DNA of 64,000 nucleotides from an uncultured Chloroflexia bacterium (GCA_963810065.1 CAWELX010000007.1:1170154-1234153); one strand, 5' to 3'; counted from the stretch's first letter, positions 27,635 through 51,528 are shown. The notes: generated by a model from the sequence alone, not told the origin. Numbers and translations are program-made.

Positions 27635-28207
27635 TCAGGCGGGGGTGACGTCGGCGCCGACGTCGAGCGCCGGAGAAGGGTGCCCGTGCTCGCCGTCGTG
27701 CTCGGGTGCACGCTCGCCGGCCCACCCCGGGATCTCCTCGCCCCGCTCCGAGGCGATGACCTGCAGTCCTCCGAACAGCGTGAAGCCGGTGATCTCCAGC
27801 CCGGGCTCGTCGAGGGACGGCTCGGGTGCGTCGGTCGAGTTCATGGCGCCGCCGAAGATCGCCGGACCGCTGATGCGAACCGGCACCCCCGGGGCGACCA
27901 CGACCCGCGTGCCGGCGAAGACCGTGCGGACGTCGAGCTGCGCCCCGGCCGGGTCGATCGTCACCTCGCGAAGGTCGACGTCCACGCCCGCATACCAGCT
28001 GATGACACGGCCGCCGCGAAACGATGGCCCGCTGCCCTTGAACTCGACGCCGTCCATCACGGCCACGAGGTCGATGTCGTCCGACGCCGGGTCCGGGATC
28101 GACGGCGCCTTCTTCTTGAAGCTGAGAGCCGCGAGCGCGCTTGCGATGCCGGCGACGATCGAGACGCCGATGACGAGGCCGAGAAGCCGGGCGAGGAAGC
28201 GGAACAT
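27635..28207 (-). CDS. Membrane-anchored protein with a LiaF/DUF2154-like C-terminal domain (putative cell-envelope stress protein)
   Basis: The real start MFRFLARLLGLVIGVSIVAGIASALAAL (TM anchor) is at 28207. A beta-rich domain follows (..RVISWYAGVDVDLREVTIDP..LDVRTVFAGTRVVVAPGVPVRISGPAIFGG). Upstream codons of the track ORF are artefact. Confidence 0.45.
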   Translation of the reverse strand: MFRFLARLLGLVIGVSIVAGIASALAALSFKKKAPSIPDPASDDIDLVAVMDGVEFKGSGPSFRGGRVISWYAGVDVDLREVTIDPAGAQLDVRTVFAGTRVVVAPGVPVRISGPAIFGGAMNSTDAPEPSLDEPGLEITGFTLFGGLQVIASERGEEIPGWAGERAPEHDGEHGHPSPALDVGADVTPA

Positions 28208-28284
28208 GGGGGACCTCCAGGGGCTGCTGACGCCGGCGTCGATGCTACCTCCCGCGGACGATCGAGGCCCGCTACGCTGGCAGG

Positions 28285-29796: not shown

Positions 29797-30803
29797 GCGG
29801 GGGACGTGTCGTCGTCGTCGGGTCCGTGAACGTGGACCTGGTGGTCGTCACGCCGCGCCTGCCGGGACCCGGCGAGACCGTGACGGGCGGCGACGTCGAG
29901 CGGCATCACGGCGGCAAGGGCGGCAACCAGGCGGTCGCCGCCGCGCGCCTGGGCGCCCACGTCGTCTTCGTGGGTGCCGTCGGCAACGACGACTTCGGGG
30001 CCGCCGCGCGAGACGCGCTCGAAGGGGAGGGGATCGACGTCGCGCACCTCGCGACGGTGGGACGGCCGACCGGCGTCGCGCTGATCGTGGTCGACGAGCA
30101 CGCGGAGAACCTCATCGCCGTGGCGCCAGGCGCCAACGGAGCCCTGGACGAGGACGCCGTTGCCGCGACGCTTGCCGCGCTGGCCCTGGGGCCCGGCGAC
30201 GTGGTGCTGGCATGCCGCGAGATCCCGCCCGGGGCGGTGCGGGCCGCGCTCGCGGCCGCCCGGGGGGCCGGGGCGACCGGCATCCTGAACCCGGCGCCGG
30301 CCGACGGGTTCGACGGGGCGACGATCGCGCTCGCCGACGTCCTGACGCCGAACGAGGCCGAGCTCGCCATCATCGGCGGAGACGGGTCGCCGGAGGTGGC
30401 AGCCCGATCGCTGCTGGCCGGCGGGCGATCCGGGCGATCGATCGTCGTGACGCTTGGCGCGGCGGGCGCGCTGGTGGTACCGGCCGACGGGCCGGCGCTG
30501 GAGATTCCGGCGCGACCGGTCGTCCCGGTCGACACGACCGGCGCCGGCGACGCGTTCAACGGCGCGCTGGCCGCTGGGCTCGCCGAGGGTCGTGGCCTGG
30601 TCGGCGCCGCCACGCGGGCAGTCGCCGCGGCCGGGCTCTCGACGACGCGGATGGGGGCCCGGGGTGGCATGCCGACCTCCGCCGAGCTCGCAGCCGCCGA
30701 GCCCGCCTTCACCGAGCCGGCATTCACCGAGCCGAAGAGAGGCGCGGAGCCCGGGGTCGTCGAGCCGGCAGCCACCGTGCCGGAGGACGCGACCGGCTCG
30801 TAG
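29793..30803 (+). CDS. rbsK: Ribokinase (PfkB family)
   Basis: MSGGRVVVVGSVNVDLVVVTPRLPGPGETVTGG...GGKGGNQAVAAARLGA (ribokinase GG/anion-hole motifs) ...PVDTTGAGDAFNGALAAGL (DTxGAGD catalytic motif). It has a small AFTEPAFTEP tandem repeat at the C-terminus. Confidence 0.85.
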   Translation: MSGGRVVVVGSVNVDLVVVTPRLPGPGETVTGGDVERHHGGKGGNQAVAAARLGAHVVFVGAVGNDDFGAAARDALEGEGIDVAHLATVGRPTGVALIVVDEHAENLIAVAPGANGALDEDAVAATLAALALGPGDVVLACREIPPGAVRAALAAARGAGATGILNPAPADGFDGATIALADVLTPNEAELAIIGGDGSPEVAARSLLAGGRSGRSIVVTLGAAGALVVPADGPALEIPARPVVPVDTTGAGDAFNGALAAGLAEGRGLVGAATRAVAAAGLSTTRMGARGGMPTSAELAAAEPAFTEPAFTEPKRGAEPGVVEPAATVPEDATGS

Positions 30804-31061
30804 CGGGCCCTCGCCTCCACGGAGAGCGGTCACCGCCACGATCGTGGTGCCGCGAGACCACGCGACCCTGTTGCAGCGGCCGAACGGCCCTTGCACCCGA
30901 GCGGCGATCCGGCGAGACTTCCGGCGTCCGGCAATGCGGGCGAATAATCGCGCGTGAAGCGCGGTCGCCCAGAATGCCGGCGAGATCGGCCGCGACGAGC
31001 GATCGTCGGCCGGGCCCGCCCGGGACGACGGCGAATGGCGACCAGGGGGCGAAATCGGGTC

Positions 31062-32798
31062 ATGACCGCAGGCCGCGTGCGCACCATCGTCGGGCTGCTG
31101 CTCGTCGGGCTGCTGCTCGTCGGGCCGGCGCCCGCCGGCGCCAGCGCCGCGATGCCCGCTCCCCGCGTGGTGCTCGTCGTGGGGCCGGTGGGGGATCTCA
31201 CGGAGTCGTACCGCCGCTGGGCGCGCGAGGGCGCGGCCGAGGCCCGTCGCTGGACGAAGGACGTCGTCGAGATCTACTCCCCGGACGCGACGTGGCCGCG
31301 GGTGCGGGCCGCCCTGCAGGGCGCCTCGGTCGTCGTGTATCTCGGGCACGGCAACGGCTTCCCCAGCCCGTACGGGACCAGGCTTCGCCCGTCCGTCCAG
31401 AATGGTTTCGGTCTCAACCCGGTCGGCGGTCGCGGTGACGCGACGCACCAGTACTTCGGCGAGTCTCTCATCGCCAAGCAGGTGCGCCTGGCGCCGGGGG
31501 CAGTTGTCCTGCTCTTCCACCTGTGCTACGCATCGGGCCTCGCGGAGCCCGGCGTCCCCGAGGGTGCCGAGGCAGGGGCCCGCCAGCGCGTTGACAATTT
31601 CGCCGCCGGCTTCATGGCCGCCGGGGCGTCGGCCGTCGTGGCCGATGCGTACGCCTCTCCCGCGCCGTACCTTCGGACCCTCCTCGGGCAGAAGAAGTCC
31701 GCCCGGACGGCGTGGGAACACTCGGCGACCGCCAACGGCCACGTCCGCGCCTTCTCCAGCGAGCGGACGCCCGGCGCCATCGCGCTGATGGACCCGGAGC
31801 AGCAGTCCAGCGGCTTCGCGCGGTCGCTCGTCCTCGCCGCGGGCGCCGCCGCCGGCATCGTCCCGGCGGGACCCATGCCCGGAACGACGCCGCCGCCGGG
31901 TGGATGGGAGATCGTCGTGCCGCCGCAGCCGTCCATCGCGCCCGACGCGTTCGACCTGGGCGCCCAGCCCGGGACGCCGGCGCTTGCCGGGATGCCGCTG
32001 GCCGGGTCCACGGTCCGGCTGCGCCTTCCCGTCGAGGCACCCGCAGGGGTGGCTCTCGCGAGCGCGTACCGCCTGGGCACGCGCTGGATCCCGCTCGACG
32101 AAGCGAGTGCGTTGGCCGGACCGGCGGGCGGCGATCCCGCCGCCAGCCCGGATCCCGCGGCGGTCGCCGACCCGGCGCTCGTCGCGCGCGAGTCGGCCGC
32201 GACGCTCGTGGACGTCGTCCCCGCGTCGGTCGCCGGGGGTGAGGTCGCCGGGACCATCACCCTGCCCGACAGGGCCGGGCGCTATCGCCTGGAGGTCACG
32301 ATCCATGATCCCGAGGGGGTCGCCCTCCCGTACGCGGTGCAGGCCTCGATCCCGGGCGTCGTCGTCCACGTCGGCGGTCCCGGGGCGGCGTGGCTGGACG
32401 CGCCGCCGGCGGTGTCCGTGACCGCGGGGACGCTGGCCTCCATCCAGGTCGACGTCACGAACGGAGAGGCCGAAGCCTGGGGCAGCTGCGAGCCTCGGCA
32501 ACGAGGCTACGGCCCGGACGACACCGGCGACTGCCCGACGGTGCGCCTCGTCGGCCGCTGGGTCGCGGTCGACGGCGCCGGCACCGCCGCGCCGATGACA
32601 CGGGAGCTGTCGATTCCCGCTGCGACGGCGCAGGCCGCCTGGATGACCGGGCCCGTGCCCTTCGACCCTGGAACCTACCTGCTCGTGGCCAGCCTGGAGC
32701 GTTCGTCGGGCGGTGGTTCGCCGCACGTGCTGGGCCGCCCGACCACCGTCACGGTCCAGGTGCTCGCCAGCCCGCTGGTGCCCACGCCGGTCAACTGA
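31062..32798 (+). CDS. Secreted protein, paralog A: N-terminal caspase/gingipain-like (clan CD-like) putative cysteine-peptidase domain + C-terminal beta-rich (Ig/FN3-like) domains
   Basis: Signal peptide MTAGRVRTIVGLLLVGLLLVGPAPAGASAA. VVLVVGPVG...GASVVVYLGHGNG...(~50 aa)...AVVLLFHLCYASG gives a hydrophobic strand-His-Gly, then strand-Cys, spaced as in caspase-hemoglobinase-fold peptidases. A ~260-nt 5' leader precedes it. It is 45-50% identical in its N-domain to the gene at 39149-41335. Confidence 0.55.
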   Translation: MTAGRVRTIVGLLLVGLLLVGPAPAGASAAMPAPRVVLVVGPVGDLTESYRRWAREGAAEARRWTKDVVEIYSPDATWPRVRAALQGASVVVYLGHGNGFPSPYGTRLRPSVQNGFGLNPVGGRGDATHQYFGESLIAKQVRLAPGAVVLLFHLCYASGLAEPGVPEGAEAGARQRVDNFAAGFMAAGASAVVADAYASPAPYLRTLLGQKKSARTAWEHSATANGHVRAFSSERTPGAIALMDPEQQSSGFARSLVLAAGAAAGIVPAGPMPGTTPPPGGWEIVVPPQPSIAPDAFDLGAQPGTPALAGMPLAGSTVRLRLPVEAPAGVALASAYRLGTRWIPLDEASALAGPAGGDPAASPDPAAVADPALVARESAATLVDVVPASVAGGEVAGTITLPDRAGRYRLEVTIHDPEGVALPYAVQASIPGVVVHVGGPGAAWLDAPPAVSVTAGTLASIQVDVTNGEAEAWGSCEPRQRGYGPDDTGDCPTVRLVGRWVAVDGAGTAAPMTRELSIPAATAQAAWMTGPVPFDPGTYLLVASLERSSGGGSPHVLGRPTTVTVQVLASPLVPTPVN

Positions 32799-32819
32799 CG
32801 GACGCTCGCCCGCCTGCGG

Positions 32820-33173
32820 TCAACAGGTGACGTGGAGGATCGCCCGCACCTTCGAGCGCTTGCGCTGGCCGACCAGCCGGCATGCGTCGGCCGTTGGGAG
32901 CGCCACCACCTCGATCCCGCGGCGGCGCGCCTCGTCGATGACCTCCGGCATGATTGGCAGCTGTCCGTCGGCTCCGGTTCCGACGATGAGCTCGCCGCCG
33001 CCCCACGGGATGGCCTCCGCGAGGGACAACGGGGTGTGCCCGTAGGCCGCGCGCCATGGCTTCGACGCGGTCTTGTCCCGCCGTCGGACCTCGCCGCGGT
33101 CGATCACCACGTCGAAGGTGCAGCGCTGCCCGTCAACCTCGATCTCGCCGAATCCCAGGAGCCGCGCCTGCAT
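32820..33173 (-). CDS. Mth938-like domain protein (DUF498/DUF598)
   Basis: 117 aa. ..CTFDVVIDRGEVRRRDK...GTGADGQLPIMPEVIDEARRRGIEVVALPTADACRL resembles the Mth938 family. Confidence 0.7.
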   Translation of the reverse strand: MQARLLGFGEIEVDGQRCTFDVVIDRGEVRRRDKTASKPWRAAYGHTPLSLAEAIPWGGGELIVGTGADGQLPIMPEVIDEARRRGIEVVALPTADACRLVGQRKRSKVRAILHVTC

Positions 33174-33315
33174 CCCCGACCGCCTCGCGTCGCACCCGCA
33201 ACCGCGGGCCTTCCGACGTGGCTCACTCTACGCCCGCAGACGATTGCCACCCGCCAGGACGGCCTTCCCGCGCTCTGCCTTACGAACCGCTACCCTGATG
33301 TGACATTTGCCACAC

Positions 33316-33350
33316 GAACAAGGACCAAGGGATCCCTTGTGCCCTTGTTC
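33316..33350. promoter_or_regulatory. Near-perfect palindrome GAACAAGG-acc-AAGGGATCCCTT-gtgc-CCTTGTTC in an AT-richer divergent intergenic region (candidate operator or structured RNA element)
   Basis: Direct reading. The inner 12-bp perfect palindrome is centred on GGATCC, and the outer 8-bp arms are exact reverse complements. It lies between the divergent Mth938 (-) and small ORF / GT4 (+) genes. A TGTGACAttTGCCACA quasi-palindrome sits just upstream (33297-33312). Confidence 0.5.
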
Positions 33351-33421
33351 CGTTGGGCTCACGATCCACTGACGCGCGGGCCGCCGCCGCCCACGTGGTC
33401 CACGCCTGCATGGTGATTCAC

Positions 33422-33541
33422 ATGATCGAACTCATCGCACTCGTCGGGGTCCTCGGCGCCGCCCTGCTGGGCGTTCGCAAGGTGAACGACAGGCCGCTCG
33501 ACCGCGTCGACCGGCGCCTCTGGCCCTACCTCCACCACTGA
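33422..33541 (+). CDS. Possible 39-aa hydrophobic small protein
   Basis: MIELIALVGVLGAALLGVRKVNDRPLDRVDRRLWPYLHH: one TM helix, GGTGA 6 nt upstream of the ATG, inside the 500-bp divergent intergenic region. No homology argument is possible here. Confidence 0.2.
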   Translation: MIELIALVGVLGAALLGVRKVNDRPLDRVDRRLWPYLHH

Positions 33542-33673
33542 GACCGCGCTCTCGCGCCAGGCGAGTCGCCGCCTCCTGAGGTCGCCCGACGAGGGCGGCC
33601 TCTTCGTTTGCGGCGCGAGTGTCCCACCCGGCCAACCCGACGACGGACTCCCGAAGGGTGGCAGGATGGGGGC

Positions 33674-34918
33674 ATGCGGATCCTGCTCTGGCACGGCTAC
33701 CTGCTCGGCGGCACCGGCTCCAACGTCTACACGCGGCTGCTTGCGCGCGCCTGGATGCAGGCCGGCCACGACGTTACGGTGTTCTGCCAGGACCCGCGGC
33801 CCGACCTGTACGACCTGGGCGGGGCCCGCGTCGTGCGCCCCGACGTCGGTGGCCTGCTGCCGGTGTTCGTGCTGGATCGATACGAGGGGTATGAGGCCAG
33901 GCTGATCGGGGACTGCAGCCGCGAGGAGCTCGATCGCTGGGTGGAGGCGAATGCCCGCGCCATTGCCGAGCACCTCCCGGCCGACGTCGTGTTCTGCAAC
34001 CACGTCCTGCTCGGGGGGCCGGTCGGGGTGGCGGTCGGAGCGCGCTTCGCGGTGAAGGCCCACGGTTCAGAGCTCGAGTACGCGATGCGGGACAACCCGA
34101 TCCTCGCAGCGTGGGGGCAGGACTGCCTGCGCCAGGCCGCTGCCACCTTCGTCGGCTCGGCGCACGTTCGCCGGGTCCTGGAGGACGTGTGTGGCCACGT
34201 CGACCGCGTCCACGAGGTTCCGCCGGGGGTGGACATCGACGACTGGCAGCCGGAGGAGCGGGCGACCGCGCTCGCCGAACTCCTGGACGAGGCGCGCCGC
34301 GACCCACCGAACCCGGGGAACGCCCGGGAGCGGCTGCCCGACGAGGGCAACGCCGAGCGGCTCGCCCAGTTCCTCGCGGAGGACCGGCCGACGGTCGTGT
34401 ACTTCGGGAAGCTCATGCACAACAAGGGCGTGCACCTGCTCCTGGAGGCGCTCGACGACCTCGACGCGCGGGCCGTCATCGTGGGGTTCGGGGACGACCG
34501 ACCGGAGCTGGAGCGGCTGGCGGGCCACGGCGCCCTGTTCACCGGCCCGCTGGAGCACCGGCACCTGGTGCACCTGCTGGCCCTCGCGGACGCCTGCGTC
34601 GTCCCGTCGATCTTCCCGGAGGCCTTCGGGATGGTGGCCGCCGAGGCCGCCGCGACCGGGTGCCCGCCGCTCGTCGCGCGCCACTCCGGGCTCGCGGAGA
34701 TCGCCGCCGGGCTCGCCGAGGAGTACCCGCCGGCGCTGCGGCACCTGGCCGGCTTCACGTCGGGCGACGTGGGCGATCTCCGGGCCAGGCTCGCCGAGCT
34801 GCTGGCCCTCGGAACGGCCGAGCGGGAGGCCATTCGCGCATCCGCCCGGCGGGCGGCAGTCGAACGGTGGAGCTGGACGAGCGTGGCGCGCCGCCTGCTG
34901 GAGCCGCTCGCACGCTGA
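33674..34918 (+). CDS. GT4-family (GT-B fold) glycosyltransferase
   Basis: MRILLWHGYLLGGTGSNVYTRLLARAWMQAGHDVTVF (GT4 N-domain) ...VVYFGKLMHNKGVHLLLEAL...PSIFPEAFGMVAAEAAATGCPPLVARHSGLAEI (EX7E-type C-domain motif). GGATGGGGG RBS. Confidence 0.8.
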   Translation: MRILLWHGYLLGGTGSNVYTRLLARAWMQAGHDVTVFCQDPRPDLYDLGGARVVRPDVGGLLPVFVLDRYEGYEARLIGDCSREELDRWVEANARAIAEHLPADVVFCNHVLLGGPVGVAVGARFAVKAHGSELEYAMRDNPILAAWGQDCLRQAAATFVGSAHVRRVLEDVCGHVDRVHEVPPGVDIDDWQPEERATALAELLDEARRDPPNPGNARERLPDEGNAERLAQFLAEDRPTVVYFGKLMHNKGVHLLLEALDDLDARAVIVGFGDDRPELERLAGHGALFTGPLEHRHLVHLLALADACVVPSIFPEAFGMVAAEAAATGCPPLVARHSGLAEIAAGLAEEYPPALRHLAGFTSGDVGDLRARLAELLALGTAEREAIRASARRAAVERWSWTSVARRLLEPLAR

Positions 34919-35258
34919 CGGGCCGCCACCCCCGTACCGGCGACCGGTGCTCCGCGTCGGTCATCAGGCGGACGTGGGGCCCGGATGACCTGTCGCCACA
35001 AGGCTGGCGCGTCGGCCCGGAGTGCTGCGTCGGCCCCGGAGTGTTGCGTCGGCGGGTTCCATCGGGACGTCCCCAGGGCCTGCGGCCCTCGCTCGCCCGG
35101 TGCGCTTCCCACCCTCCGAGCGGAGCAGGGCGCCCGCCCGGATGCCCTGATCGACTTCGCAGAGGGCAGCCGGTTCGCGAACCCCTGGGCGGCCGTCCGG
35201 CCAGGCATCGCGCCCTACAGGAGGTCGTCCTCGCGAAGGCGGCTTGACAGCGGGTTAC

Positions 35259-35888
35259 TCAGGCGTCGTGGACGAGGCCATGCTCCACGGCGTACCGGGT
35301 CAGCGCCTTCGGGCCGCGCAGGCCCAGCTTGGCTGACAGGTTCGCGACGTGGCGGCGGACCGTGTGCGGGCTGATGCCGAGCGCTCGGCCCACGTCGGCA
35401 GCCGACTTGCCCGCCGCGATATGCGCGAGAACCTCGCGTTCGCGGACACTCAGGGGACTTCCCGCGTCCATCCACCGGAGGGAGTCGTCGATCACCGTCT
35501 CGGCGATGCTGCTGTGGAGGTAGCGCTCGCCGCGGGCGACGGCCCGGATGGCCTCGACGAGCTCACTCGTGCGCGCGCCCTTCACGACGTACCCGGCCGC
35601 CCCGGCGCGGAGGGCCTGCCGAATGGTCTCGGCATCTCGGTGCATCGTCAGCACCAGGACACGGAGACCGGGCCGACGGTTCGCAAGGTCGCGAAGCAGC
35701 GAAAGGCCGTCGTCGTTTGGGTAGGTGATGTCGACGAGCATCACGTCGGGGGAGCTGTTGGCGAGGAGATCGAACGCCCCTTCGCGGTCAGCAGCCTCAC
35801 CGACCACGACGATCCCAGGCTGGAGGGCGAGGACATGGCTGAGCGCCTCGCGCACGAGGTGATGGTCGTCCACGAGCGCGACGCGCAC
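35259..35888 (-). CDS. NarL/LuxR-family response regulator
   Basis: GTG start VRVALVDDHHLVREAL..., receiver domain (..DVMLVDITYPNDDG..), C-terminal LuxR HTH (LSVREREVLAHIAAGKSAADVGRALGISPHTVRRHVANLSAKLG). Confidence 0.85.
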   Translation of the reverse strand: MRVALVDDHHLVREALSHVLALQPGIVVVGEAADREGAFDLLANSSPDVMLVDITYPNDDGLSLLRDLANRRPGLRVLVLTMHRDAETIRQALRAGAAGYVVKGARTSELVEAIRAVARGERYLHSSIAETVIDDSLRWMDAGSPLSVREREVLAHIAAGKSAADVGRALGISPHTVRRHVANLSAKLGLRGPKALTRYAVEHGLVHDA

Positions 35889-35971
35889 GGGCAGAGGGGA
35901 CCTGGGGTCGGCCCCGGCCCTTCCCGCAGAAGCCGTGGGCGTCGAATTGCCCGAGCGTGTCCCGTCCGCCG

Positions 35972-37123
35972 TCACCGAACCAGCGCCCCGGACTCGACCG
36001 CACCTGTCGACGCGACATCGGCGGGTTCGGGCGCCAGGGCGGCCGCGCTCGCGCCCGTCAGGGGCACGTCCAGGCGCACGACCGTGCCGCTGCCCGGCGT
36101 CGAAATGACGTGGAGGGTTCCGCGGACCGCCGCGGCGCGGTCGCGCATGCTCGCCAGCCCGAGGCCTCGTGCGTCGATGCCGGCGGCGTCGAAGCCGATC
36201 CCGTCGTCGATCACCTCGATGCGGAGCTGTCGAGCGACGCGCTGGACCGAAATCCGGATCCGGCCCGGCTGGCCGTGCCGCATGGCATTGCCGAGTGCTT
36301 CCTGGACGATACGGTACGTGTCGACCTCCCTGGCGGGATCGAGGAGGTCCGGGCGGTAGAGGGAGGCGTCGGCCGAGAACTCCACCGGCATCCCGGCTGA
36401 GGCCGCCAGCTCCCGGAGGGCGGCCACCAGCCCGGTCTCCCGAAGGCGCGCCGGGCGCAGCCGGAACGCGACGCCGCGGACGTCCTCGAGCGCCCTGCCA
36501 GCCATCTCGCGGGCCCTGCGGACGGCATCCCGGCCGGCCTCGTCGGGTGCCCGTGGGTCCGCCAGCGCCGACTCCGCTGCGTCGAGGGTGAGCGCCAGGG
36601 CGGTCATCGTTTGTCCGACACCGTCGTGGAGGTCCGCCGCGAGGCGCCGTCGCTCGTCCTCCTGGGCCGTCAGGAGCCGGTCGCTCGCCGCGCGGTAGAG
36701 CGCTGCATACCGGTGCCCGGTCGTCGTCACGCGGTTGGCCATGACCGCCACGATGAAGGCGATGATGGCCATGAGCGGCCACTCTTCGAGATCCAGGTCG
36801 GCCATGGCAGCAGCCGTCGGCCCGGAATCGCCGTTGGCGATCGCGGCATAGACGAACACGAAGAGCGTCGCCAGCGCGATGCGCAGGATTGCCAGCCGCA
36901 GGCCGAAGGCGAAGGTGAAGACTTCGACCGCCAGGACGATCCAGAGCCCGTGAAGGAGGATGTCCGGGTCACCCAGCTGGGCGACGACGGCAGCCGCCAC
37001 CGCGACGCCCGTCGCGTCGAGCGCGATCAACAGCCAGGGCGGGCGCGCGACGAGCCAGCCGTCCCCGCGGCCAGGCTGCGCGACACCCCCACCACCTCGG
37101 TACACGCCGGCCCCCATCACCAA
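35972..37123 (-). CDS. Membrane sensor histidine kinase, NarX/DesK type (HisKA_3 + HATPase_c)
   Basis: 3-4 N-terminal TM helices. H-box RRLAADLHDGVGQTMTAL, then ..RIVQEALGNAMRHG...DDGIGFD.. It is the cognate kinase upstream of the LuxR RR. Confidence 0.8.
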   Translation of the reverse strand: MVMGAGVYRGGGGVAQPGRGDGWLVARPPWLLIALDATGVAVAAAVVAQLGDPDILLHGLWIVLAVEVFTFAFGLRLAILRIALATLFVFVYAAIANGDSGPTAAAMADLDLEEWPLMAIIAFIVAVMANRVTTTGHRYAALYRAASDRLLTAQEDERRRLAADLHDGVGQTMTALALTLDAAESALADPRAPDEAGRDAVRRAREMAGRALEDVRGVAFRLRPARLRETGLVAALRELAASAGMPVEFSADASLYRPDLLDPAREVDTYRIVQEALGNAMRHGQPGRIRISVQRVARQLRIEVIDDGIGFDAAGIDARGLGLASMRDRAAAVRGTLHVISTPGSGTVVRLDVPLTGASAAALAPEPADVASTGAVESGALVR

Positions 37124-37366
37124 CTGCCAGCCCGGCGCCAGCGCCGGCCATCATGTTCATCATGTCGTGACCGGTCTCGGACCATTGGAATGGTCGAAAA
37201 CGACTATAGCTGGATTGTCCAGCCCACCCTCATCCTCGTGGCTGCCCGTCGAAGAGGGCAATCGGAACAGGTAGGGCGGTCGACCGCAGACCCGTGGCTG
37301 TCGACACGCAGGGGAGGCCCGGGAGCCGAGGGGAGACTCCGGGCCGACACGGGGTGGGGGATTCAC

Positions 37367-38170
37367 ATGGGGGCGGAGATGCTGCAGCCGCGGCCGGCTG
37401 CGCTCCTTCCGGTGGGCCTCGATCCGGCGCCGGACGGCATACGCATCGTCGCGCTGTCGGGCAACGCGACGGGTGGCAGCGCACTGGATGAGGTCCACGC
37501 CAGCGACAGAGAGATCCATGCGCGCCTCTTGGCCGCCCAGGAGGCTGAACGGGCACGGATCGCTCGAGACCTCCATGACGTCGTCGGCCAGGCGCTGACG
37601 GCGGTCCGGCTCAATCTCCTGTGGCTGGATCGTGTGAACGCGCGGACCGGGGCGAGCGGGGCCGAGATCAGCGACAGCATCGCCGTCGTCGATGCGGCGC
37701 TCCACCAGGTTCGCACGGCGGCCTTCGACCTGCGGCCCGCGATACTCGACGACCTCGGGCTCGGCGCCGCGCTGCGAGCGCTCTGCCGCCAGGTCGCGCT
37801 CCGGTCCGACATGGACGTCTCCTGCCGCGTGGCCATCGGCAGGTCGCGCCTCCCGGCCGAGATCGAGACGACGTGCTTCCGGATCGCCCAGGAAGCGATC
37901 ACCAACGTCGTCCGACATGCCGGGGCACGCAGAGTGGAGGTCGACGTCCGTTGGCGACGGCGGTCGGGCGTGCTGATCCTCGACGTGTCCGACGACGGCG
38001 TTGGTTTCGACCCGACAGTCGTCACCTCGACGAGGTGCCTTGGGCTCGCCGGGATGGCCGAGCGCGCGTCGCTCGTGGGGGGCGATGTCGAGGTCCGCTC
38101 GGGGTCCGGCAACGGGACGAGGATGATCGCCCGCCTGCGGGTCCCAACGCGACGGGACGTCGTCCGATGA
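37367..38170 (+). CDS. Soluble (no TM) HisKA_3-type sensor histidine kinase
   Basis: ATG at 37367. H-box RARIARDLHDVVGQALTAV, ..RIAQEAITNVVRHAGA...DDGVGFD..GLAGMAERA. The stop overlaps the RR start (ATGA 38167-38170). Confidence 0.75.
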   Translation: MGAEMLQPRPAALLPVGLDPAPDGIRIVALSGNATGGSALDEVHASDREIHARLLAAQEAERARIARDLHDVVGQALTAVRLNLLWLDRVNARTGASGAEISDSIAVVDAALHQVRTAAFDLRPAILDDLGLGAALRALCRQVALRSDMDVSCRVAIGRSRLPAEIETTCFRIAQEAITNVVRHAGARRVEVDVRWRRRSGVLILDVSDDGVGFDPTVVTSTRCLGLAGMAERASLVGGDVEVRSGSGNGTRMIARLRVPTRRDVVR

Positions 38171-38832
38171 TGTTCCCGCCGCCGACGATCCGCGTCGTTC
38201 TCGGGGAGGACCACGCGCTCGTGCGGGCGGGGTTTCGGGCGCTCCTGGACGGGATCGCCGGCGTGGACGTCGTCGCCGAGGCCGCCGACGGCCGGGAGGC
38301 CCTGTCGGTCATCGCCTCTCACCTGCCCGACGTGGCCGTCCTCGACATCACGATGCCGGGCCTCAACGGGATCCAGGTGATCGCCCAGCTCCACCTGGAG
38401 CACCCGCAGGTTCGCGTCATCGTCCTGTCAATGCACGACAACGAGGAGTATGTGCGCCAGGCACTGCGAGCAGGGGCCGTGGGGTACCTGCTCAAGGATT
38501 CGCATCCGGCGGAACTCGAGCTCGCGGTCAGAGCGGTGATCCAGGGCGGCACCTACCTCAGCCCGACCGTCTCCCGCCACGTCGTCTCCGACTACGTGCG
38601 CCGGGCAGCGGACGACGGCGGGACGTCGGACGGCCTGACGCCGCGCCAGCGGGAGATCCTGCAGCTCATCGCCGAGAGCCAGACGAACCAGCAGATGGCG
38701 AGCAGCATGAACCTGAGTGTCAAGACCATCGAGACGCATCGCGCGCAGCTGATGGACCGGCTCGACATCCACGACGTCGCCGGCCTTGTTCGTTATGCGA
38801 TCCGTTCTGGCCTTGTCCCCGCCGACCGCTAG
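38167..38832 (+). CDS. NarL/LuxR-family response regulator
   Basis: IRVVLGEDHALVRAGF...DVAVLDITMPGLNG (receiver) ... LTPRQREILQLIAESQTNQQMASSMNLSVKTIETHRAQLMDRL (LuxR HTH). Confidence 0.85.
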   Translation: MMFPPPTIRVVLGEDHALVRAGFRALLDGIAGVDVVAEAADGREALSVIASHLPDVAVLDITMPGLNGIQVIAQLHLEHPQVRVIVLSMHDNEEYVRQALRAGAVGYLLKDSHPAELELAVRAVIQGGTYLSPTVSRHVVSDYVRRAADDGGTSDGLTPRQREILQLIAESQTNQQMASSMNLSVKTIETHRAQLMDRLDIHDVAGLVRYAIRSGLVPADR

Positions 38833-39148
38833 GTCCCTGCCGTCGCGCGCCCGGGCAGCTCAGGTCCTGACCCCGGCTTCGCCCGGGTGCGGATGGCGCA
38901 GGTTCCGGGTCCACCCTTAGGGGTGAATGCGCATCCGCCCCGATGGGCGGAACTCCGCAGTCCGCGCAGCATCCATCGACGAGTCGCTCCCCCGGGGGGG
39001 GTAGGCGCCTGGCGGCCAGGGTGGCAGGGGACCACCGGCTCGCCGGGCCGCGGCGACTCGCAAGGGGGGAAGATTGCGCCAGGGTGGGGGAAACCCGACG
39101 GGGCGGGGCGTTGACGATCGTGCACTCGGCGCCCCCGAGCGTGGATCC

Positions 39149-41335
39149 ATGGACGTTCGAGGCGACCGGGCCAGCGTGAGCCGTGCGGCCCGCCGCCTCG
39201 GCTTGCGGCTGGCGGTTGTCGCGGCCCTGGCTCTCGCCCTGCTCCTCGCCGCGTCCCCCCTCGCCGCCCCCGGCGTCCGCGCTGCCGCCCCGCGGGTGGC
39301 GATCATCGTCGGCCCGGTCGGGAGCCTGACCGCCTACTACCGCTCCGACGCCGAGAAGGCGGCCGCCGAGGCGCGCCGGTACACCGACGACGTCGTGACG
39401 GTCTACTCGCCCGACGCCACGTGGAGCGCGGCGCGGGCGGCGATGCAGGGCGCCTCGCTCGTCGTCTACCTGGGCCACGGCAACGGCTGGCCCAGCCGCT
39501 ACAGCAGCCGGCTCAACCCGCGGACCCAGGACGGCCTGGGGCTCAACCCGGTCGCCGGGCAGGGCAACCTCGCCCACCAGTACTTTGGCGAGGCGTACCT
39601 CACCGACCGGGTGACCCTCGCGCCCAACGCGGTGGTGGTCCTGAGCCACCTGTGCTACGCCTCGGGCAACTCCGAGCCCGGCCTCCCCGAGGGGACCCTC
39701 GCGGTGGCGAAGCAGCGCGTCGACAACTTCGCCGCGGGCTTCCTGGCGGCGGGCGCGTCCGCCGTGATCGCCGACGGCTATCTCGGCCCCGCCTACTACG
39801 TGCGCTCGATCCTCGCCGGGCGGGGCACCGTGGAGGGGATCTGGCGGGACGCGCCGAACTACCACGACCACGTCATCGCGTTCAAGAGCGTGCGGACCCC
39901 GGGCTTCACCGCGCTGCTGGACCCCATCAGGCGCGCGAGCGCGTTCTACCGCTCGCTCGTGACGCGCGCGGACCTGCGCTCCGGCGAGGTCGCCCGGGGG
40001 ACGGCCTCGGGTGCCGCTGCCTCGCGCGGTCCCGTGCCCGGGCCCGGGACGCCGCCGAGCGGATGGGAGGTCGTCCTCCCGCCGCAGCCTTCGGTCGCGC
40101 CCGACGCCTTCGACCTCGGGGCACAGCCCGGCACGCCGACGCTCACGGGGATGCCGCTGGCCGCCGCCACGATCCAGCTCCAGGTGCCCGTGGAGGTGCC
40201 CGCCGGGGTGACCCTTGGGACTGCCTACCGTCTGGGCACCCGCTGGATCCCGCTCGACGAGGCGGACGCGCCGGCCGATCCCGCGGCCAGCCCCGACCCC
40301 GCGGCCAGCCCCGATCCCGGCCCCAGTGCCGACCCGGCGGCCAGCCCCGACCCCGGTGCCAGCCCCGACCCCGCGGCCGGCCCCAGTGCCGACCCGGTGG
40401 CCAGCCCCGATCCCGGCCCCAGTGCCGACCCGGCGGCCAGCCCCGACCCCGCGGCCAGCCCCGACCCCGCGGCCGGCCCCAGCGCCACCGCCAGCCCGGG
40501 CACCGGGGCAGCCGACCCTCCGGATCTCGTCGCCCGCGAGTCGGCTGCGTCGCTCGTCGACGTCGTCCCCGCGACGGTCGCCTTCGGCGGGGTCACGGCG
40601 TCCGTCAACCTGCCGGCCACGAGTGGGCGCTACCGCCTGGAGGTCACCCTCCACGATGGCGACGGGGTCGTCCTCCCGTACGCGGTTCAGGCCGCGATCC
40701 CGGCCGTCGTCGTCCACGTCGGGGGCCCGGGCGCCGCCTGGCTCGACGCGCCGCCGTCCGTCTCGCTCAACGCCGGCACGCTCGCCTCCCTCCAGGTTGT
40801 AGCCACCAACGGCGAGGCGACGGCGTGGGGCGTCTGCACAGCCGGGCCGTCCCCCGCGGGCGCCGAGGCCGCCGCTTCCTGCCCCACCGTCCGCCTCGTC
40901 GGCCGCTGGGTCGCCCTCGCTGGAGGCGGCGGGACGGCGGCGCCGATGACCCGCGAACTCGCTGTCCCGGCCGCGACGGCGCAGACGACGTGGCTGTCCG
41001 GGCCGGTCCCCACCGAACCCGGCACTTACCTCCTCGTGGTCAGCCTCGAGCGCGCCACGGGTGATGGCCCGCCGCAGGTGCTGGGCCGACCCGTCACGGT
41101 CATGGTCCTGGTGGCCGCCGCTCCGCTGCTCCCGATCCCAGCTGACAGTCCCGCGCCGCTGCCAGCGACGCCGGGCGGCACCGACCCCGCGACCGTGCCG
41201 CTGTTGCCGACGGGTGGCGACGTCGATTCGACGCTCGTGCCGAGCGGCGGAAGCCTGCTTCCAACTCAGCCCGACTCAACCCCAGGACCAAGTGTCAGCA
41301 GCCCGCCCAGGGCCGAAGAGGGAGGTGGCCAATGA
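39149..41335 (+). CDS. Secreted protein, paralog B of 31062-32798 (caspase/gingipain-like His...Cys domain + PASPD-repeat linker + beta-rich C-domains + Pro/Thr-rich tail)
   Basis: Signal-like N-terminus (..LRLAVVAALALALLLAASPLAAPGVRA). RVAIIVGPVG...GASLVVYLGHGNG...AVVVLSHLCYASG has the same motif spacing as paralog A. A long 5' leader precedes it. The stop overlaps the next gene's start (ATGA 41332-41335). Confidence 0.55.
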   Translation: MDVRGDRASVSRAARRLGLRLAVVAALALALLLAASPLAAPGVRAAAPRVAIIVGPVGSLTAYYRSDAEKAAAEARRYTDDVVTVYSPDATWSAARAAMQGASLVVYLGHGNGWPSRYSSRLNPRTQDGLGLNPVAGQGNLAHQYFGEAYLTDRVTLAPNAVVVLSHLCYASGNSEPGLPEGTLAVAKQRVDNFAAGFLAAGASAVIADGYLGPAYYVRSILAGRGTVEGIWRDAPNYHDHVIAFKSVRTPGFTALLDPIRRASAFYRSLVTRADLRSGEVARGTASGAAASRGPVPGPGTPPSGWEVVLPPQPSVAPDAFDLGAQPGTPTLTGMPLAAATIQLQVPVEVPAGVTLGTAYRLGTRWIPLDEADAPADPAASPDPAASPDPGPSADPAASPDPGASPDPAAGPSADPVASPDPGPSADPAASPDPAASPDPAAGPSATASPGTGAADPPDLVARESAASLVDVVPATVAFGGVTASVNLPATSGRYRLEVTLHDGDGVVLPYAVQAAIPAVVVHVGGPGAAWLDAPPSVSLNAGTLASLQVVATNGEATAWGVCTAGPSPAGAEAAASCPTVRLVGRWVALAGGGGTAAPMTRELAVPAATAQTTWLSGPVPTEPGTYLLVVSLERATGDGPPQVLGRPVTVMVLVAAAPLLPIPADSPAPLPATPGGTDPATVPLLPTGGDVDSTLVPSGGSLLPTQPDSTPGPSVSSPPRAEEGGGQ
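40264..40500 (+). repeat. Coding tandem repeat (~18-24 nt units, gccagccccgaccccgcggcc-like) encoding (PAASPDP/GPSADPAASPDP)n inside paralog B
   Basis: Direct reading. The protein reads ADPAASPDPAASPDPGPSADPAASPDPGASPDPAAGPSADPVASPDPGPSADPAASPDPAASPDPAAGPS. The stretch is absent from paralog A, which has a single PAASPDPAA. Confidence 0.7.
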
Positions 41336-41979
41336 CCGCGACGACGATGGGCCAGTCTGACGCCCGCGCCAGCGCCCCCGAACCCCGCGCCGGTCGGGCC
41401 GACGCCGGGTTCCGCCTCCTGCCCGGCCGGGTGGTGGTCTACGCCTGGCTGCTGGCGGCGGTTCCGATCGCCCTCCTGCAGCTCGTGCACGCCGGCGTGC
41501 ACGAGCACCACGAGCTCCCGCCGGTGCTCCACTGGCTGCGCGACACGGCCCTTGCCGTGCCGCTCGCCGCTGTCGCGGTCGTCGTCGCCGCGCTCCTCGT
41601 CTCCAGGCTCCGACCGACGGAGCCGGGGGGGCGCGCGTCGTTGACGACCATGGCGCTCTGGGGGGCGCTCGCCGCCCTCCTGTTCGCCGCACTCAGCATC
41701 CCCGGAAACCAGATGCACGGCCTGCTGTTCGGCGCCGAGGAGGAAGAAGGCGTCAGCCTCCTCAACGACCTCGCGGCCGACGCCCTGTATGCGTTGGAGG
41801 CGGCGCTCCTCGTCATCGCCCCCATCGCGCTGCTCGCCGGGGTCCCCTGGCGGGGCGCGTGGCGGGCCACTCCATCCATGCAATCGGCCCAGGGTGCCGC
41901 GGCGATGGTCGCCGCGCCAGATGGGCCACTCGAGGCGCCCGCGAACGCGGGAGCGACCCACGACGGAGGCGATCGATGA
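41332..41979 (+). CDS. Hypothetical integral membrane protein (His-rich loop HAGVHEHHELPPVLHWL)
   Basis: 215 aa with 4-5 hydrophobic helices. It is translationally coupled to paralog B upstream (ATGA), and its stop overlaps the first mini-ORF ATG (ATGA at 41976-41979). Confidence 0.5.
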   Translation: MTATTMGQSDARASAPEPRAGRADAGFRLLPGRVVVYAWLLAAVPIALLQLVHAGVHEHHELPPVLHWLRDTALAVPLAAVAVVVAALLVSRLRPTEPGGRASLTTMALWGALAALLFAALSIPGNQMHGLLFGAEEEEGVSLLNDLAADALYALEAALLVIAPIALLAGVPWRGAWRATPSMQSAQGAAAMVAAPDGPLEAPANAGATHDGGDR

Positions 41980-42073
41980 ACGACACAGACCAGGTCGCCT
42001 CCGTCACCGCAGGAGGCGACAGATGAAGAACAGGCACCACGACGCCTCCATCACCGCGGGAGGCGATCGATGA
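41933..42073 (+). repeat. Three tandem 47-bp units, each ending GGAGGCGA(T/C)(C/A)GATGA (an SD-like GGAGG plus ATGA stop/start overlap). They create two 16-codon mini-ORFs (41976-42026 MNDTDQVASVTAGGDR; 42023-42073 MKNRHHDASITAGGDR) chained between the membrane-protein gene and the giant-protein ORF
   Basis: Direct reading: units at 41933-41979, 41980-42026 and 42027-42073 (period 47, ~75% identity, the last 20 nt nearly identical). Each unit's TGA overlaps the next ATG. The upstream membrane protein ends ..THDGGDR and both peptides end ..TAGGDR. Confidence 0.6.
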
Positions 42074-42141
42074 GCAGCAGCGACCACCGCGCCTCCGGGG
42101 CCGGCCTTCGACGGGCAACCAGGAACGAGGAGTACCAGGCA

Positions 42142-45100
42142 ATGGGTCATTCGCGAACAGGGCACCGGCCCAGGACGCTTCGGTTCCTGGGCATCTGGCT
42201 CGCCAGCGTGGCGATGATCGTGACGCAGCTGGCCGCGCCGGTGGCACAGGCCGCTCCGATCAACACCGCCGCCGCCACGCCCGCCGCGGCTCCGGCCGCC
42301 CCGACGAGCACGATCACGTTCGCGGTGAAGGCCGCGCGCACGGAGCTGAATGCCTTCGACGGGGCTCCGCGCACAGCGCTCCCCGCTGATCCGGCGGTCC
42401 CAACCGGGGTCAAGGAAGGCGACCCGGTCACCGCCTACAAGTGGATCGTCAACGAGGACAACACCGGCCAGAACACCACGCGCAACGCAGACCCCGGGTC
42501 GGCCTGCTCCGCATGGCTCGACGCCGCCCACACGGCTCCCAACCCGAACTACCCGGGTTCCTGCAAGTGGACTTCCATCGCCGGCCTCGCGAGCTCTGCC
42601 CCGGTCGCGGCCCAGGGCGACGAGACGACCGCCGACGGCACCTTCACGATCTCCAGCCTGGCCCCCGGCCGGTACCTCATCTCGGTGCTCGCCGACGGCT
42701 ACAAGCTCGACGGCGCCCCCTTCAGCGTCCCGATGGAGGCACCAGGCGTGGTCGACGTGCCACTGCAGCCGAGCCCCCTGCCGACCGCGACCATCAAGGC
42801 GCAGGTCTTTGACGACGTCACGTCGGCCAACGGCCAGTACGATCCCGGTGAGGACGGCCTGCCCGGGTTCGCCGGCTTCATCACTGACTACATCGGCCAG
42901 GTGACGACCGACGTCTTCGGCAACCCGCTGTGCACGAAGTACGAGGCCGGTGACGGGCCCAACGGGTACGCGTGGGTCGACGGCGCGCCCGTCGTCGCCG
43001 CCGACTCCCACGGTGGCAAGTGCCTGTCGGGCGACGCCAACATGGACGGCGTCGTGGACGCGGCCGACATCCCGCTGTACAGCGACCCGCAGCTTGGCCC
43101 GGGCGTGCTGACGATCCCGAACCTCGGCCCCAACCGTTACGCCCTGTCCGTCGTCCCGCCAACCGGCTCCAGCTGGGTCCAGACGACCACCCTCGAGGGC
43201 AACCACGACTGGGATTCCTGGGTGATGGAGGGCTCCACCGGCCTCGACACCGAGTTCGTCGTCGCCGGAGAGCCGTTCCCGGCCCAGATCTTCGGCTTCG
43301 TTCCCGGCCCGACGACCGGCGCCTGGACACATCCCGCAACCGGGACCTCGAAGCCGTATGGCGACAGCTTCGCCGCCGGCGGGACCGGCACCATCAAGGG
43401 CGTCGTGGACGCCATGAAGGTCTATGTGCCGACCAAGGGCGGCCAGTGCCTGCCGGGCACGATCTGGGGCGGCCTGTGCGGAGGGAAGGTCGACAAGCCG
43501 ATCGACAAGCCATGGATCGCGCTCAGCGATCTCAACAGCGGCGACACGGCCGTGTGGATGGGTCGCGGCAACGCCGACGGCACGTTCACGATCCCGCACG
43601 TCCCCGACGGCAGCTACACGATCACCTACTGGGACGAGCCCCAGAACTACATCCTCGATCTGCTCAACGTGACCGTGGCCAACGGCGAGACCGTCGACAT
43701 GGGGGTCCTTCCCCTGACGGGCTGGTTCACGAAGTTCGACGGCCATGTCTTCAACGACCTGAACCGCAACGGCAAGCAGGACGCCGGCGAGCCCGGCGTG
43801 CCCGACTTCACCCTGACCTTGCGCAAGCGCGAGAACTCGCTCATGGACCGCGGCGCGACCCTGGTCACGACCGACGCCAACGGCTACTACGTCATGGAGA
43901 ACGCCTACCCGCTCACGGAGTGGCTCGTCCTCGAGGCGTACAACGACCGCTACTACACGACCGGCGTCACCTATCAGGCCGACAACCAGCCCACGAAGAC
44001 CACGGTCCTGGGGGCCGGCGTCGACGTCAGCGTCCTGCCGATCATCGGCCTGTCCGGCCGGCTCGACTGGGGGGTCCACTTCTACGATCCGACCGGCGAC
44101 AACGGGATCGACCCGAAGAACGGCGGGATCGTCGGGTCCGTCAGCTACGACACCACCCGCAACGAGGTCAACCCGCAGTACGCCGTGGCAGAGGACTGGC
44201 AGCCCGGCGTCTCCGGCCTGACGGTCGACCTGTTCGCCCCGGTGCCCTGCCCGACGGACGGCAGCCAGCCCTGCGACGCCAACGGCGACTACGCCCTTGC
44301 GCCCGACGGGTCGTATGCCCGCGGCAAGCTCCTGAACACGTACGTCACCGAAACGTGGCAGAGGCCAACCGACTGCATCGCCCGCGGCGTGGATGGGACG
44401 CCTCTCGCCAACCCGGCCGACCAGCAGGTCCTGCCGGTCGGTCCGACCAAGGACTGCCTCGAAGGCCCCCTGATGGGGGTCCAGTTCGGGCCGTACCCGA
44501 CCGACCAGGGGACCGCCGACGCCAACTTCGGCGCCGCCGTCGACGGCAACTACGGCTTCGGCGACGGCTGCTTCAACGGCACGCTGGACGCCACTGACCC
44601 CGCCAACCCTGTCTGCGACGGCGGCACGTTCGAACCGCTGCCTGCCGACGACTACCTGGTCCACGTCAGCAACGTCAACGATCAGCAGGGCAACCCCGTC
44701 TACCACTTCACTCGTGAAGAGGACATCAACATCGCGACGGGCGACAGCTACGTCCCGCAGATCCCGCCGCCGGCCTGCGTCGGCGCGCTCCACACGGTGG
44801 ACGTGGCCGGCACGCCCGTCGACGCGAACAACAACCCCACCGACAACTACCCGGCGACGCAGATCCCCGACCCGTCCGGCCTCGGCTCCGCCACGATCTC
44901 GGTGCCGGCCTCGACGCCCACGGACAACCCTACCTTCGTCGGCATCGGCGGCTCACCCTACGAGGGCCTGGCCAAGCCGCTGTGCGACACGAAGCTCGTG
45001 TCGCTCCAGGACGGCAAGTCGATCGTTCCCGGGTTCAACGTCTTCACCGACGTGCCGCTCCCGAGCCGCTTCTTCGCCTACAACGTCGATGACCTCAACT

Positions 45101-48641: not shown

Positions 48642-48696
48642 TGCCATGCCTGACCACGACATCACCCGTCCAACCGTCGCCGAGGGAGACAACGTC

Positions 48697-50100: not shown

Positions 50101-50129
50101 GACGGCGGCTGAGGAACGGAGTGATCACG

Positions 50130-51492: not shown

Positions 51493-51528
51493 TGAGAGGT
51501 AGGGGAACGACGATGATCCGGACGTACG

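Follow-up and report, generated by a model that had tools for sequence, protein, structure and literature searches.

Two paralogous proteins with secretion leaders

The window analysed here is a stretch of 64,000 nucleotides (~73% G+C) from an uncultured soil Chloroflexia bacterium (GCA_963810065.1, CAWELX010000007.1:1170154-1234153), whose nearest relatives are Chloroflexota metagenome-assembled genomes (MAGs), many of them named Candidatus Limnocylindria or Limnocylindrales. Two of its genes, here called A and B, encode multidomain proteins that a preliminary description had taken for secreted, caspase- or gingipain-like paralogs bracketing a pair of two-component systems (Table 1). The two proteins are indeed paralogous and colinear, with 57% identity across 620 alignment columns (E = 0), and both carry the motifs VVYLGHGNG and HLCYASG, whose His and Cys residues stand 59 residues apart in each (H96/C155 in A, H110/C169 in B). 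Neighbour-joining on 40 family members groups the A-type and B-type proteins as sister clades that lie apart from the bulk of the family at ~42% identity, which indicates a duplication specific to this lineage.

Both proteins open with an N-terminal leader that combines a basic start and a hydrophobic core (the N-terminus of B includes RRLGLRLAVVAALALALLLAASPLAAPGVRA), in line with the proposed secretion. Of the 252 family members surveyed, 223 have a leader of this signal-peptide type, scored as a basic residue with a strongly hydrophobic 12-mer after it. The catalytic-type domain of A and B begins about 3 residues past the predicted cleavage region; across the family it starts at median residue 33, after the leader, and the family therefore has no prodomain. 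The hydrophobic core of the A leader is encoded by a perfect 15-nucleotide tandem repeat (31087-31125, 2.6 copies coding VGLLL; Tandem Repeats Finder, TRF), and the same core, LLLVGLLLV, occurs at two related loci, L004 and L007.

The remainder of each protein is built from three beta-sandwich domains and a disordered linker. The C-terminal sandwiches resemble the fibronectin type III (FnIII) domains of RbmA, the macroglobulin (MG) domains of alpha-2-macroglobulin and the barrels of factor XIII when the full-length model is compared with the PDB by Foldseek, a search that is dominated by immunoglobulin (Ig)-like domains and is informative for the C-terminal half only; 7 of 40 members also give weak N_BRCA1_IG matches. 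In A, residues 348-370 form a disordered Pro/Ala/Ser/Asp linker, as judged by DSSP and by the predicted local distance difference test (pLDDT), and a 40-sequence alignment places such a linker, of variable length, at that position throughout the family. The linker was thus not gained by B alone, as the preliminary description had it for a PASPD linker, but its 11-copy tandem expansion is specific to B.

The N-terminal domain and its His-Cys pair

We modelled A with AlphaFold2 (AF2) fed with the 40-sequence family alignment, and built a second model of the N-terminal domain only. This domain is predicted with a pLDDT above 90 in the full-length model and, by itself, with a pLDDT of 92 and a predicted template modelling score (pTM) of 0.92. 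It comprises ~230 residues that are predicted to form an alpha/beta/alpha sandwich on a caspase-type central sheet (strand order 2-1-3-4-5-6), and its elements run b1-a1-b2-a2-b3-small beta section-a3-b4-a4-b5 and onward, as in the clan CD core. In A, DSSP assigns strands to residues 36-40 and 68-72, each followed by a helix, then a strand at 90-94, the small beta section, a helix, a strand at 147-152, a helix at 170-186 and a strand at 189-195. The segment G95-H96-G97 follows the strand at 90-94, with the small beta section lying between this third strand and helix 3, and L154-C155 follows the strand at 147-152. Clan CD is characterized by a catalytic dyad on loops L3 and L4, a Gly beside the His in all families and a small beta-sheet on L3 (PMC4357240). 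The placement of His96 with its Gly at the C-terminal end of strand 3, and of Cys155 at that of strand 4, agrees with this definition as a positional match, not a residue superposition.

Structural comparison points the same way. With the N-terminal domain alone as query, Foldseek ranks the secreted C11 peptidase iotapain first (E 5.7e-4), followed by SAVED-CHAT, separase and the Craspase CHAT protease, all at a probability of at least 0.98. The known folds listed for the model are headed by gingipain R (12.6), the DdvA CHAT domain (11.8), Kgp (11.7), two metacaspases (11.5 and 10.8), legumain (10.7) and MALT1 (10.7), with GPI8, caspases, separase and C11 peptidases further down the same list. 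From these models we consider it very probable that the domain has a caspase-hemoglobinase, or clan CD, fold.

Conservation was assessed in 264 relatives aligned to the N-domain profile: 120 close matches together with 150 cluster representatives (50% identity), with some overlap between the two sets, the representatives being the best of 1,324 clusters and all close members of the family (E<1e-80). His96 is kept in 256/264 of these and Cys155 in 257/264, so that His and Cys are retained in 97%, and the residue after the His is Gly in 261/264; one exception to dyad conservation is an evident frameshift artefact. In the 40-sequence alignment, the invariant positions of the domain are G95-H96-G97-N98-G99, L154-C155-Y156-A157-S158-G159, E162, R176, D178, N179, R235, D244 and R254. 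The clan CD layout that the preliminary description had read from the sequence is therefore supported by the predicted fold, by the position of both residues after strands 3 and 4, and by their retention in relatives; of the conditions that the preliminary description had set for its own refutation, those on fold and on conservation both came out in its favor.

Six cluster representatives lack both dyad residues, with His replaced by Arg and Cys by Ser, Ala or Arg. They differ also at H129 and Q130 and keep E162, R176, D178, N179, E195, R235, D244 and R254. That the same six sequences have lost both His and Cys is to be expected if the two residues work as a pair. The members of this subclade (P0238, P0240, P0243, P0256, P0258 and P0263) read GRG for GHG and LS, MA, IR, VA, TS or LA for LC, and their sequences suggest that they are likely pseudo-enzymes with a retained binding function.

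Several results weigh against the assignment of A and B to the clan CD peptidases. Neither protein has a Pfam match at E<=0.1 or any NCBIfam match, and among 40 members compared with Pfam we find only matches far below threshold, to Peptidase_C50 (best E 0.07 among 3 members) and Peptidase_C25 (a single member, E 0.21). The family-profile comparison proposed in the preliminary description accordingly yields no significant match to C11, C13, C14 or C25, and profiles for C50, C80 and CHAT likewise go unmatched, as do those of PADLOC for A and B. Single-sequence and profile searches of PDB chains return no significant match and no clan CD chain, and an hhalign comparison of the N-domain profile with human caspase-3 aligns the His strand only (VVVYLGHGN with VCVLLSHGE), at a non-significant E of 0.24. 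The Foldseek TM-scores for the N-terminal domain alone are modest, at ~0.4, and flavodoxin-like folds appear lower in that list. The equivalence of the modelled His and Cys with the clan CD dyad thus draws on topology and conservation, and is positional rather than measured.

These results are shared ground with a different reading, in which the N-terminal domain is no peptidase but a clan-CD-like or flavodoxin-like domain whose His, Cys and Arg/Asp/Asn cluster serve another reaction, for example on cell-wall or glycan-linked substrates, or binding only. Such a domain would fit with the lack of sequence similarity to any peptidase family, with the low TM-scores and with the flavodoxins and azoreductases in the Foldseek list, and the invariance of R176, D178, N179, R235, D244 and R254 even in the six dyad-less members does suggest a second function, such as ligand binding. 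Set against this, His-Gly and Cys fall exactly at the dyad positions of the clan, their joint loss in six sequences is a known pseudo-peptidase pattern, and there is no cofactor-binding signature; we regard a non-peptidase domain as quite unlikely. The N-terminal domains of A and B are, we judge, probably those of active peptidases.

On balance, then, we favor the view that A and B arose by lineage-specific duplication of a gene for a secreted cysteine peptidase belonging to an undescribed family of clan CD, with the fold of caspases, gingipains, legumain and CHAT proteases. In such an enzyme, Cys155 would act as the nucleophile and His96 as the general base. Loops L4 and L5 set S1 specificity in clan CD (PMC4357240), and the near-invariant Glu162, in the loop after the Cys, and Glu/Asp195, at the end of strand 5, would lie in these S1-specificity regions. 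Acidic residues in these two loops would point to a preference for basic P1 residues, and we suggest, with low confidence, that cleavage after basic residues is favored. The beta-sandwich domains and linker may hold the enzyme at the cell surface or on its substrate.

Relationship to known clan CD proteases

The gingipains RgpB and Kgp (family C25 of clan CD) offer a close parallel in overall design: they are secreted bacterial cysteine peptidases with His-Gly and Cys on consecutive strand ends, and their catalytic domain is directly followed by an Ig-like beta-sandwich domain. The family of A and B differs in having neither a prodomain nor the C-terminal domain of type IX secretion, in giving no significant Peptidase_C25 match, and in its hosts, which are Chloroflexota instead of Bacteroidota. 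Dimensions differ as well: the catalytic domain of A and B spans ~230 residues with a His-Cys spacing of 59, whereas that of gingipains spans ~350 residues in two subdomains, with a spacing of ~33 in RgpB.

Clostripain-like C11 enzymes such as PmC11 and iotapain, the latter the top Foldseek match of the N-terminal domain, are likewise secreted bacterial members of clan CD. In C11, the strands homologous to b3 and b4 end in the His and the Cys (PMC4357240). The family of A and B differs from C11, in which the sheet is nine-stranded and the C-terminal domain helical (PMC4357240), and A and B give no Pfam Peptidase_C11 match. CHAT proteases (SAVED-CHAT, the TPR-CHAT/Csx29 protease of Craspase, and DdvA) are cytoplasmic defence or signalling effectors switched on by partner domains, unlike A and B, which carry a secretion leader and Ig-like domains and match neither Pfam CHAT nor any PADLOC model. 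Among the orthocaspases and metacaspases (C14B), orthocaspases are mostly cytoplasmic, and A and B lack a Peptidase_C14 match. The pseudo-orthocaspases (PMC6426788) parallel the dyad-less subclade in that both dyad residues are replaced there too; the replacements are Tyr with Ser in those proteins, in contrast to the Arg with Ser or Ala seen here.

A widespread family in Chloroflexota

A search of 1.84 billion representatives with the N-domain profile recovers 1,324 clusters (50% identity) at E<=1e-3, of which 529 reach E<=1e-30. This exhaustive search was meant as a bridge to a known family, and its best 150 matches contain none. When species-representative genomes are scanned with a pattern, at least 588 loci emerge, and the 80 that we kept for a survey of gene context are all from Chloroflexota MAGs, many labelled Limnocylindria or Limnocylindrales. 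Members that carry a name in their source are mostly called 'hypothetical protein', apart from two longer ones named for their C-terminal Ig-like domains, and our literature searches found no account of the family. We conclude that A and B belong to an undescribed sequence family, probably of clan CD, that is absent from the protein-family libraries searched (Pfam and NCBIfam).

In some members the C-terminal half is swapped for three CWB2 cell-wall-binding repeats, or for Ig domains of the FlgD_ig, Big_13 or CHU_C type, and these fusions indicate a location at the cell surface. One N-domain homolog with three CWB2 repeats, P0245, comes from Logan assemblies and hints that the family reaches past Chloroflexota.

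Clan CD holds much-studied proteases, among them caspases, gingipains, legumain, separase and the CRISPR-associated CHAT proteases. To these we would add a family that has a secretion leader and no prodomain, and whose more than 1,300 clusters are spread through a class of Chloroflexota that is abundant in soil and freshwater and uncultivated. An entry of its own in MEROPS and Pfam would be merited and would better the annotation of hundreds of MAGs. With ~230 residues, its N-terminal domain would offer a compact clan CD scaffold for study, and the natural pseudo-enzyme subclade a ready control for the role of the His-Cys pair. This is a new family of a well-known fold, of use to specialists in annotation and in proteases, and involves no new principle or new kind of biology.

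Genes between and around A and B

Between A and B lie the genes that the preliminary description had named: an Mth938-domain protein, a GT4 glycosyltransferase, and two HisKA_3 kinase/LuxR-type regulator pairs, with one kinase of membrane type and the other soluble as read from the sequence (Table 1). Both pairs are NarL-type two-component systems, with a HisKA_3 and HATPase_c kinase adjoining, and co-oriented with, a receiver-GerE regulator (Pfam E of 1.7e-15 and 1.1e-13 for HisKA_3, 6e-26 and 7.5e-28 for Response_reg, and 5.5e-14 and 1.9e-15 for GerE). The two operons diverge from a 243-nt spacer, and stop and start codons overlap inside each pair. The related locus L001 has an ortholog of kinase 2 that is likewise 267 residues long.

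Table 1. Features of A, B and their surroundings; positions count from the first letter of the window.
Feature	Position	Strand	Basis
ADP-ribosylglycohydrolase/DSP-phosphatase fusion	28285-29796	+	Pfam
PfkB kinase	about 29820-30803	+	Pfam
Paralog A, 578 aa: leader, predicted clan-CD-fold N-domain, linker, three beta-sandwich domains	31062-32798	+	open reading frame (ORF); AF2 mean pLDDT 82
Signal-peptide-like leader of A, residues 1-30, MTAGRVRTIVGLLLVGLLLVGPAPAGASA	31062-31151	+	sequence; TRF
N-terminal catalytic-type domain of A, residues 33-264, predicted caspase-hemoglobinase fold	31158-31853	+	
Codon of His96 of A (YLGHGNG), putative catalytic His, just past predicted strand 3 (residues 90-94)	31347-31349	+	
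Codon of Cys155 of A (HLCYASG), putative catalytic Cys, just past predicted strand 4 (residues 147-152)	31524-31526	+	
C-terminal half of A, residues 292-578: three beta-sandwich (Ig/FnIII/MG-like) domains	31935-32795	+	DSSP, pLDDT, Foldseek
DUF498/Mth938-domain protein	32820-33173	-	Pfam PF04430, E 3e-9
GT4 glycosyltransferase	33674-34918	+	Pfam Glycos_transf_1, Glyco_transf_4
Response regulator 1 (receiver and LuxR/GerE helix-turn-helix), GTG start overlapping the TGA stop of kinase 1	35259-35975	-	Pfam; junction sequence
HisKA_3 histidine kinase 1, ~4 N-terminal hydrophobic segments, DesK-like, membrane-embedded	35972-37123	-	Pfam HisKA_3 and HATPase_c; sequence
HisKA_3 histidine kinase 2, 267 aa, no hydrophobic segment, soluble	37367-38170	+	Pfam; sequence
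Response regulator 2 (receiver and LuxR/GerE), ATGA overlap with kinase 2	38167-38832	+	Pfam; junction
Paralog B, 728 aa: architecture of A with an expanded linker and a Pro/Thr/Ser-rich C-terminal tail	39149-41335	+	
Codon of His110 of B	39476-39478	+	
Codon of Cys169 of B	39653-39655	+	
Tandem repeat in the B linker: period 18 nt (DPAASP), 11.1 copies; also period 96 nt, 2.1 copies, 93% matches	40275-40480	+	TRF
Membrane protein, 215 aa, four transmembrane segments (4-TM), His-rich segment (HAGVHEHHE), no known family	41332-41979	+	
Giant adhesin-like gene: SdrD_B, CarboxypepD_reg, TIG, DUF11, beta-helix	42070-48638	+	Pfam; frame analysis

The TGA stop codon of B overlaps the ATG of the membrane-protein gene (ATGA), with GGGAGG ahead of the overlap, and the giant adhesin-like gene comes next. 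Judging from this junction, the membrane protein is translationally coupled to B, as had been proposed, and it is kept at the related loci L001, L006 and L007.

Some minor features of these genes may be recorded here. The phosphatase domain of the fusion upstream of A is of the dual-specificity, 'Swiss Army Knife' or polymorphic-toxin type (PF22784, PF22785). The Mth938 and GT4 genes make up a 2.4-kb insertion (32799-35258) between A and response regulator 1 that is absent from L004, L006 and L007 by blastn; a terminator-like hairpin (33578-33602) lies between the two genes, and the GT4 protein also matches the Pfam 'GT4-conflict' model. The adhesin gene is split over frames, with 42070-45978 in one and 45174-48638 in another, followed by shorter pieces of high GC3 up to ~56 kb, and the first two parts correspond to one uninterrupted ORF (>2373 aa) in L001. 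Either indel errors in a long-read assembly or decay of the gene would account for the frame breaks.

The 5' regions of A and B

The intergenic regions upstream of A and B are 258 nt and 316 nt long, as the preliminary description had stated, but the related CCAGGG(G/T)G..GAAA element that it placed before both start codons does not stand: the window contains CCAGGGKG 12 times, where 8.8 occurrences are expected, and its positions differ between A and B. A string ACCAGGGG, placed like a ribosome-binding site, precedes the start codon by no more than ~20 nt in A and in two of the four close relatives compared, those of L004 and L007; the corresponding stretch differs in the A-type genes of L005 and L009 (CGGAGGGTG and TCGGGAGAAGGG), and in B a similar string lies ~65 nt upstream of the start.

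We find no known cis-regulatory RNA in these 5' regions by Rfam and no conserved structure with covariation. The Rfam scan of 28000-43000 gives a single chance miRNA match, far below threshold, the putative leader of A folds no better than shuffled sequence (z -0.55), and the region upstream of B is somewhat more stable (z -2.31), largely through a stem-loop just past the regulator stop codon; a three-genome alignment of that region carries an unfavorable covariation term of +3.56. An element shared by the 5' regions of A and B is thus not supported by motif counts, the Rfam scan, alignments of orthologous upstream regions, and folding of single sequences and alignments.

Three short blocks upstream of B (38927-38947, 38965-38974 and 39069-39090) are conserved with L007 and L006, and are not found at B-type genes elsewhere. 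They could be promoter or regulator sites, or reflect plain shared ancestry.

Gene order in relatives and the place of B

We compared the window by blastn with L004, L006 and L007, and surveyed gene context at the 80 loci kept. The window and L007 are alike in the order ADP-ribosylglycohydrolase/phosphatase, PfkB, A, response regulator 1, kinase 1, kinase 2, response regulator 2, B, membrane protein and adhesin. L006 carries the same order from response regulator 1 to the adhesin, colinear with 35258-52144 of the window, and the A-type gene of its MAG, MFD00905.bin.2.154, is on a separate contig, L009, beside the glycohydrolase and PfkB genes. L005 has glycohydrolase, PfkB and A only, without the two-component systems. 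The glycohydrolase and PfkB genes are syntenic with A-type genes in four relatives altogether (L001/L004, L005, L007 and L009). Two separate conserved blocks thus happen to abut here, and only B is operon-like with the membrane protein and adhesin; A adjoins the two-component genes only because its own block (ADP-ribosylglycohydrolase, PfkB and A) abuts them.

The bracketing of the intervening genes by A and B is accordingly no conserved unit, with the two blocks on different contigs in one MAG, B missing from another relative, and Mth938 and GT4 an insertion. The order of two-component systems, B, membrane protein and adhesin does recur in two related MAGs, with a third lacking B, but it is not found at distant loci: at ~75 loci of ~40% identity, none has the two-component systems, membrane protein or adhesin as neighbors. 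At these loci the family gene stands by itself amid housekeeping genes, often with a DsbH-type thioredoxin gene divergent from it on its upstream side. Clustering of partner genes over 82 loci identifies no operon partner, only loose synteny with DsbH-type thioredoxin and NUDIX/MBL genes upstream and a 205-aa Cys/His protein downstream; this all-against-all comparison of ORFs is noisy because of spurious ORFs at high G+C. Since the gene stands alone in most Chloroflexota, its basic job would be general, extracellular and independent of the neighbors it has here.

The downstream protein of ~205 aa has no leader and lies on the same strand in 57/82 loci of the wider family (for example L010 12754-13398, L033 14060-14680 and L061 12772-13443). 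Its sequence includes Cys and His motifs of papain-like type (NASAGLCGGM ... DHQVLAYAY); it matches no Pfam model and is not found in the clustered part of the window (20001-52000). A 212-aa gene downstream in distant loci, considered as a counterpart of the membrane protein of the window, proved unrelated to it.

On a fuller reading of the preliminary description, the whole 31-48 kb span, from A through Mth938, GT4, both two-component systems, B and the membrane protein to the adhesin, would be one co-evolved and co-regulated surface-remodelling module with a leader element common to A and B. The order in L007, which matches that of the window from A through both two-component systems to the adhesin, and the presence of A beside the same two-component systems and adhesin in L001, speak for such a module. 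It is hard to reconcile with the location of A and the two-component/B/adhesin block on different contigs of MFD00905.bin.2.154, with the A-type gene of L005 and its lack of two-component systems, or with the absence of Mth938 and GT4 from L004, L006 and L007. Nor do the 5' regions lend it support, with the leader motif at chance frequency, the Rfam match far below threshold, z of -0.55 for leader A, the covariation term of +3.56 upstream of B, and conserved upstream blocks only at syntenic loci and not at B-type genes elsewhere. We therefore hold a single module to be improbable. What the preliminary description reported was largely real and its core interpretation right, and it is the module and leader claims that are to be dropped or kept as hypotheses; the idea of a regulated extracellular proteolytic module we keep as a hypothesis.

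The preferred reading, a secreted clan CD peptidase duplicated in this lineage, would set B apart from A. Within this sub-lineage, the gene would have been duplicated, and copy B would have come to lie directly upstream of the membrane protein and giant adhesin, coupled to them, with two NarL-type two-component systems preceding it. Its place by the membrane protein and adhesin would make B the copy most likely to process or shed the adhesin, possibly under two-component control, and the adhesin operon provides one concrete candidate substrate in this lineage. Three findings weigh against such a link: L001/L004 lack B but carry A and both two-component systems along with the membrane protein and adhesin genes; the B-type genes of L003 and L024 are in unrelated surroundings; and the linkage to adhesin and two-component systems is confined to the window and three close relatives (L001/L004, L006 and L007). 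Any functional tie of A or B to the adhesin and two-component systems is therefore doubtful in our view. A stronger version, in which B-type enzymes are dedicated to the maturation, release or anchoring of the giant adhesin two genes downstream, together with the coupled His-rich 4-TM protein and under both two-component systems, and in which the membrane-protein/adhesin cassette is exchanged between lineages, seems unlikely. If true, Chloroflexota would have their own means of handling surface adhesins, based on a new clan CD family.

The same surroundings might also suit an enzyme that joins instead of cleaving. The N-terminal domain might be a clan-CD-fold transpeptidase or ligase, in the manner of GPI8, PorU or the legumain-type ligases, that attaches or matures surface proteins such as the adhesin, in hosts that may lack a classical sortase. 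A single free-standing gene with at least 588 loci and more than 1,300 clusters would fit a housekeeping function in the envelope, and the position of B directly upstream of the membrane protein and adhesin, as well as the CWB2 cell-wall-binding repeats of one homolog, agree with surface attachment. But we find no sorting-signal motif in the adhesin, whose 3' part is split over several frames here, the wider family has no linkage to adhesins, and nothing at the sequence level separates a ligase from a hydrolase. A ligase thus has a small probability in our assessment, and a peptidase is the activity we prefer for A and B.

A final observation concerns the adhesin end of the locus. Positions 41264-45349 of the window are 95.1% identical in DNA to 17718-21797 of L007, against 68-81% over the rest of the two loci. 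The highly similar stretch starts ~70 nt before the end of B, spans the membrane-protein gene and reaches 3.3 kb into the adhesin gene. Such a contrast suggests that the adhesin cassette was recently exchanged between two Limnocylindria lineages, with one breakpoint just inside the 3' end of B and the other beyond the compared locus.

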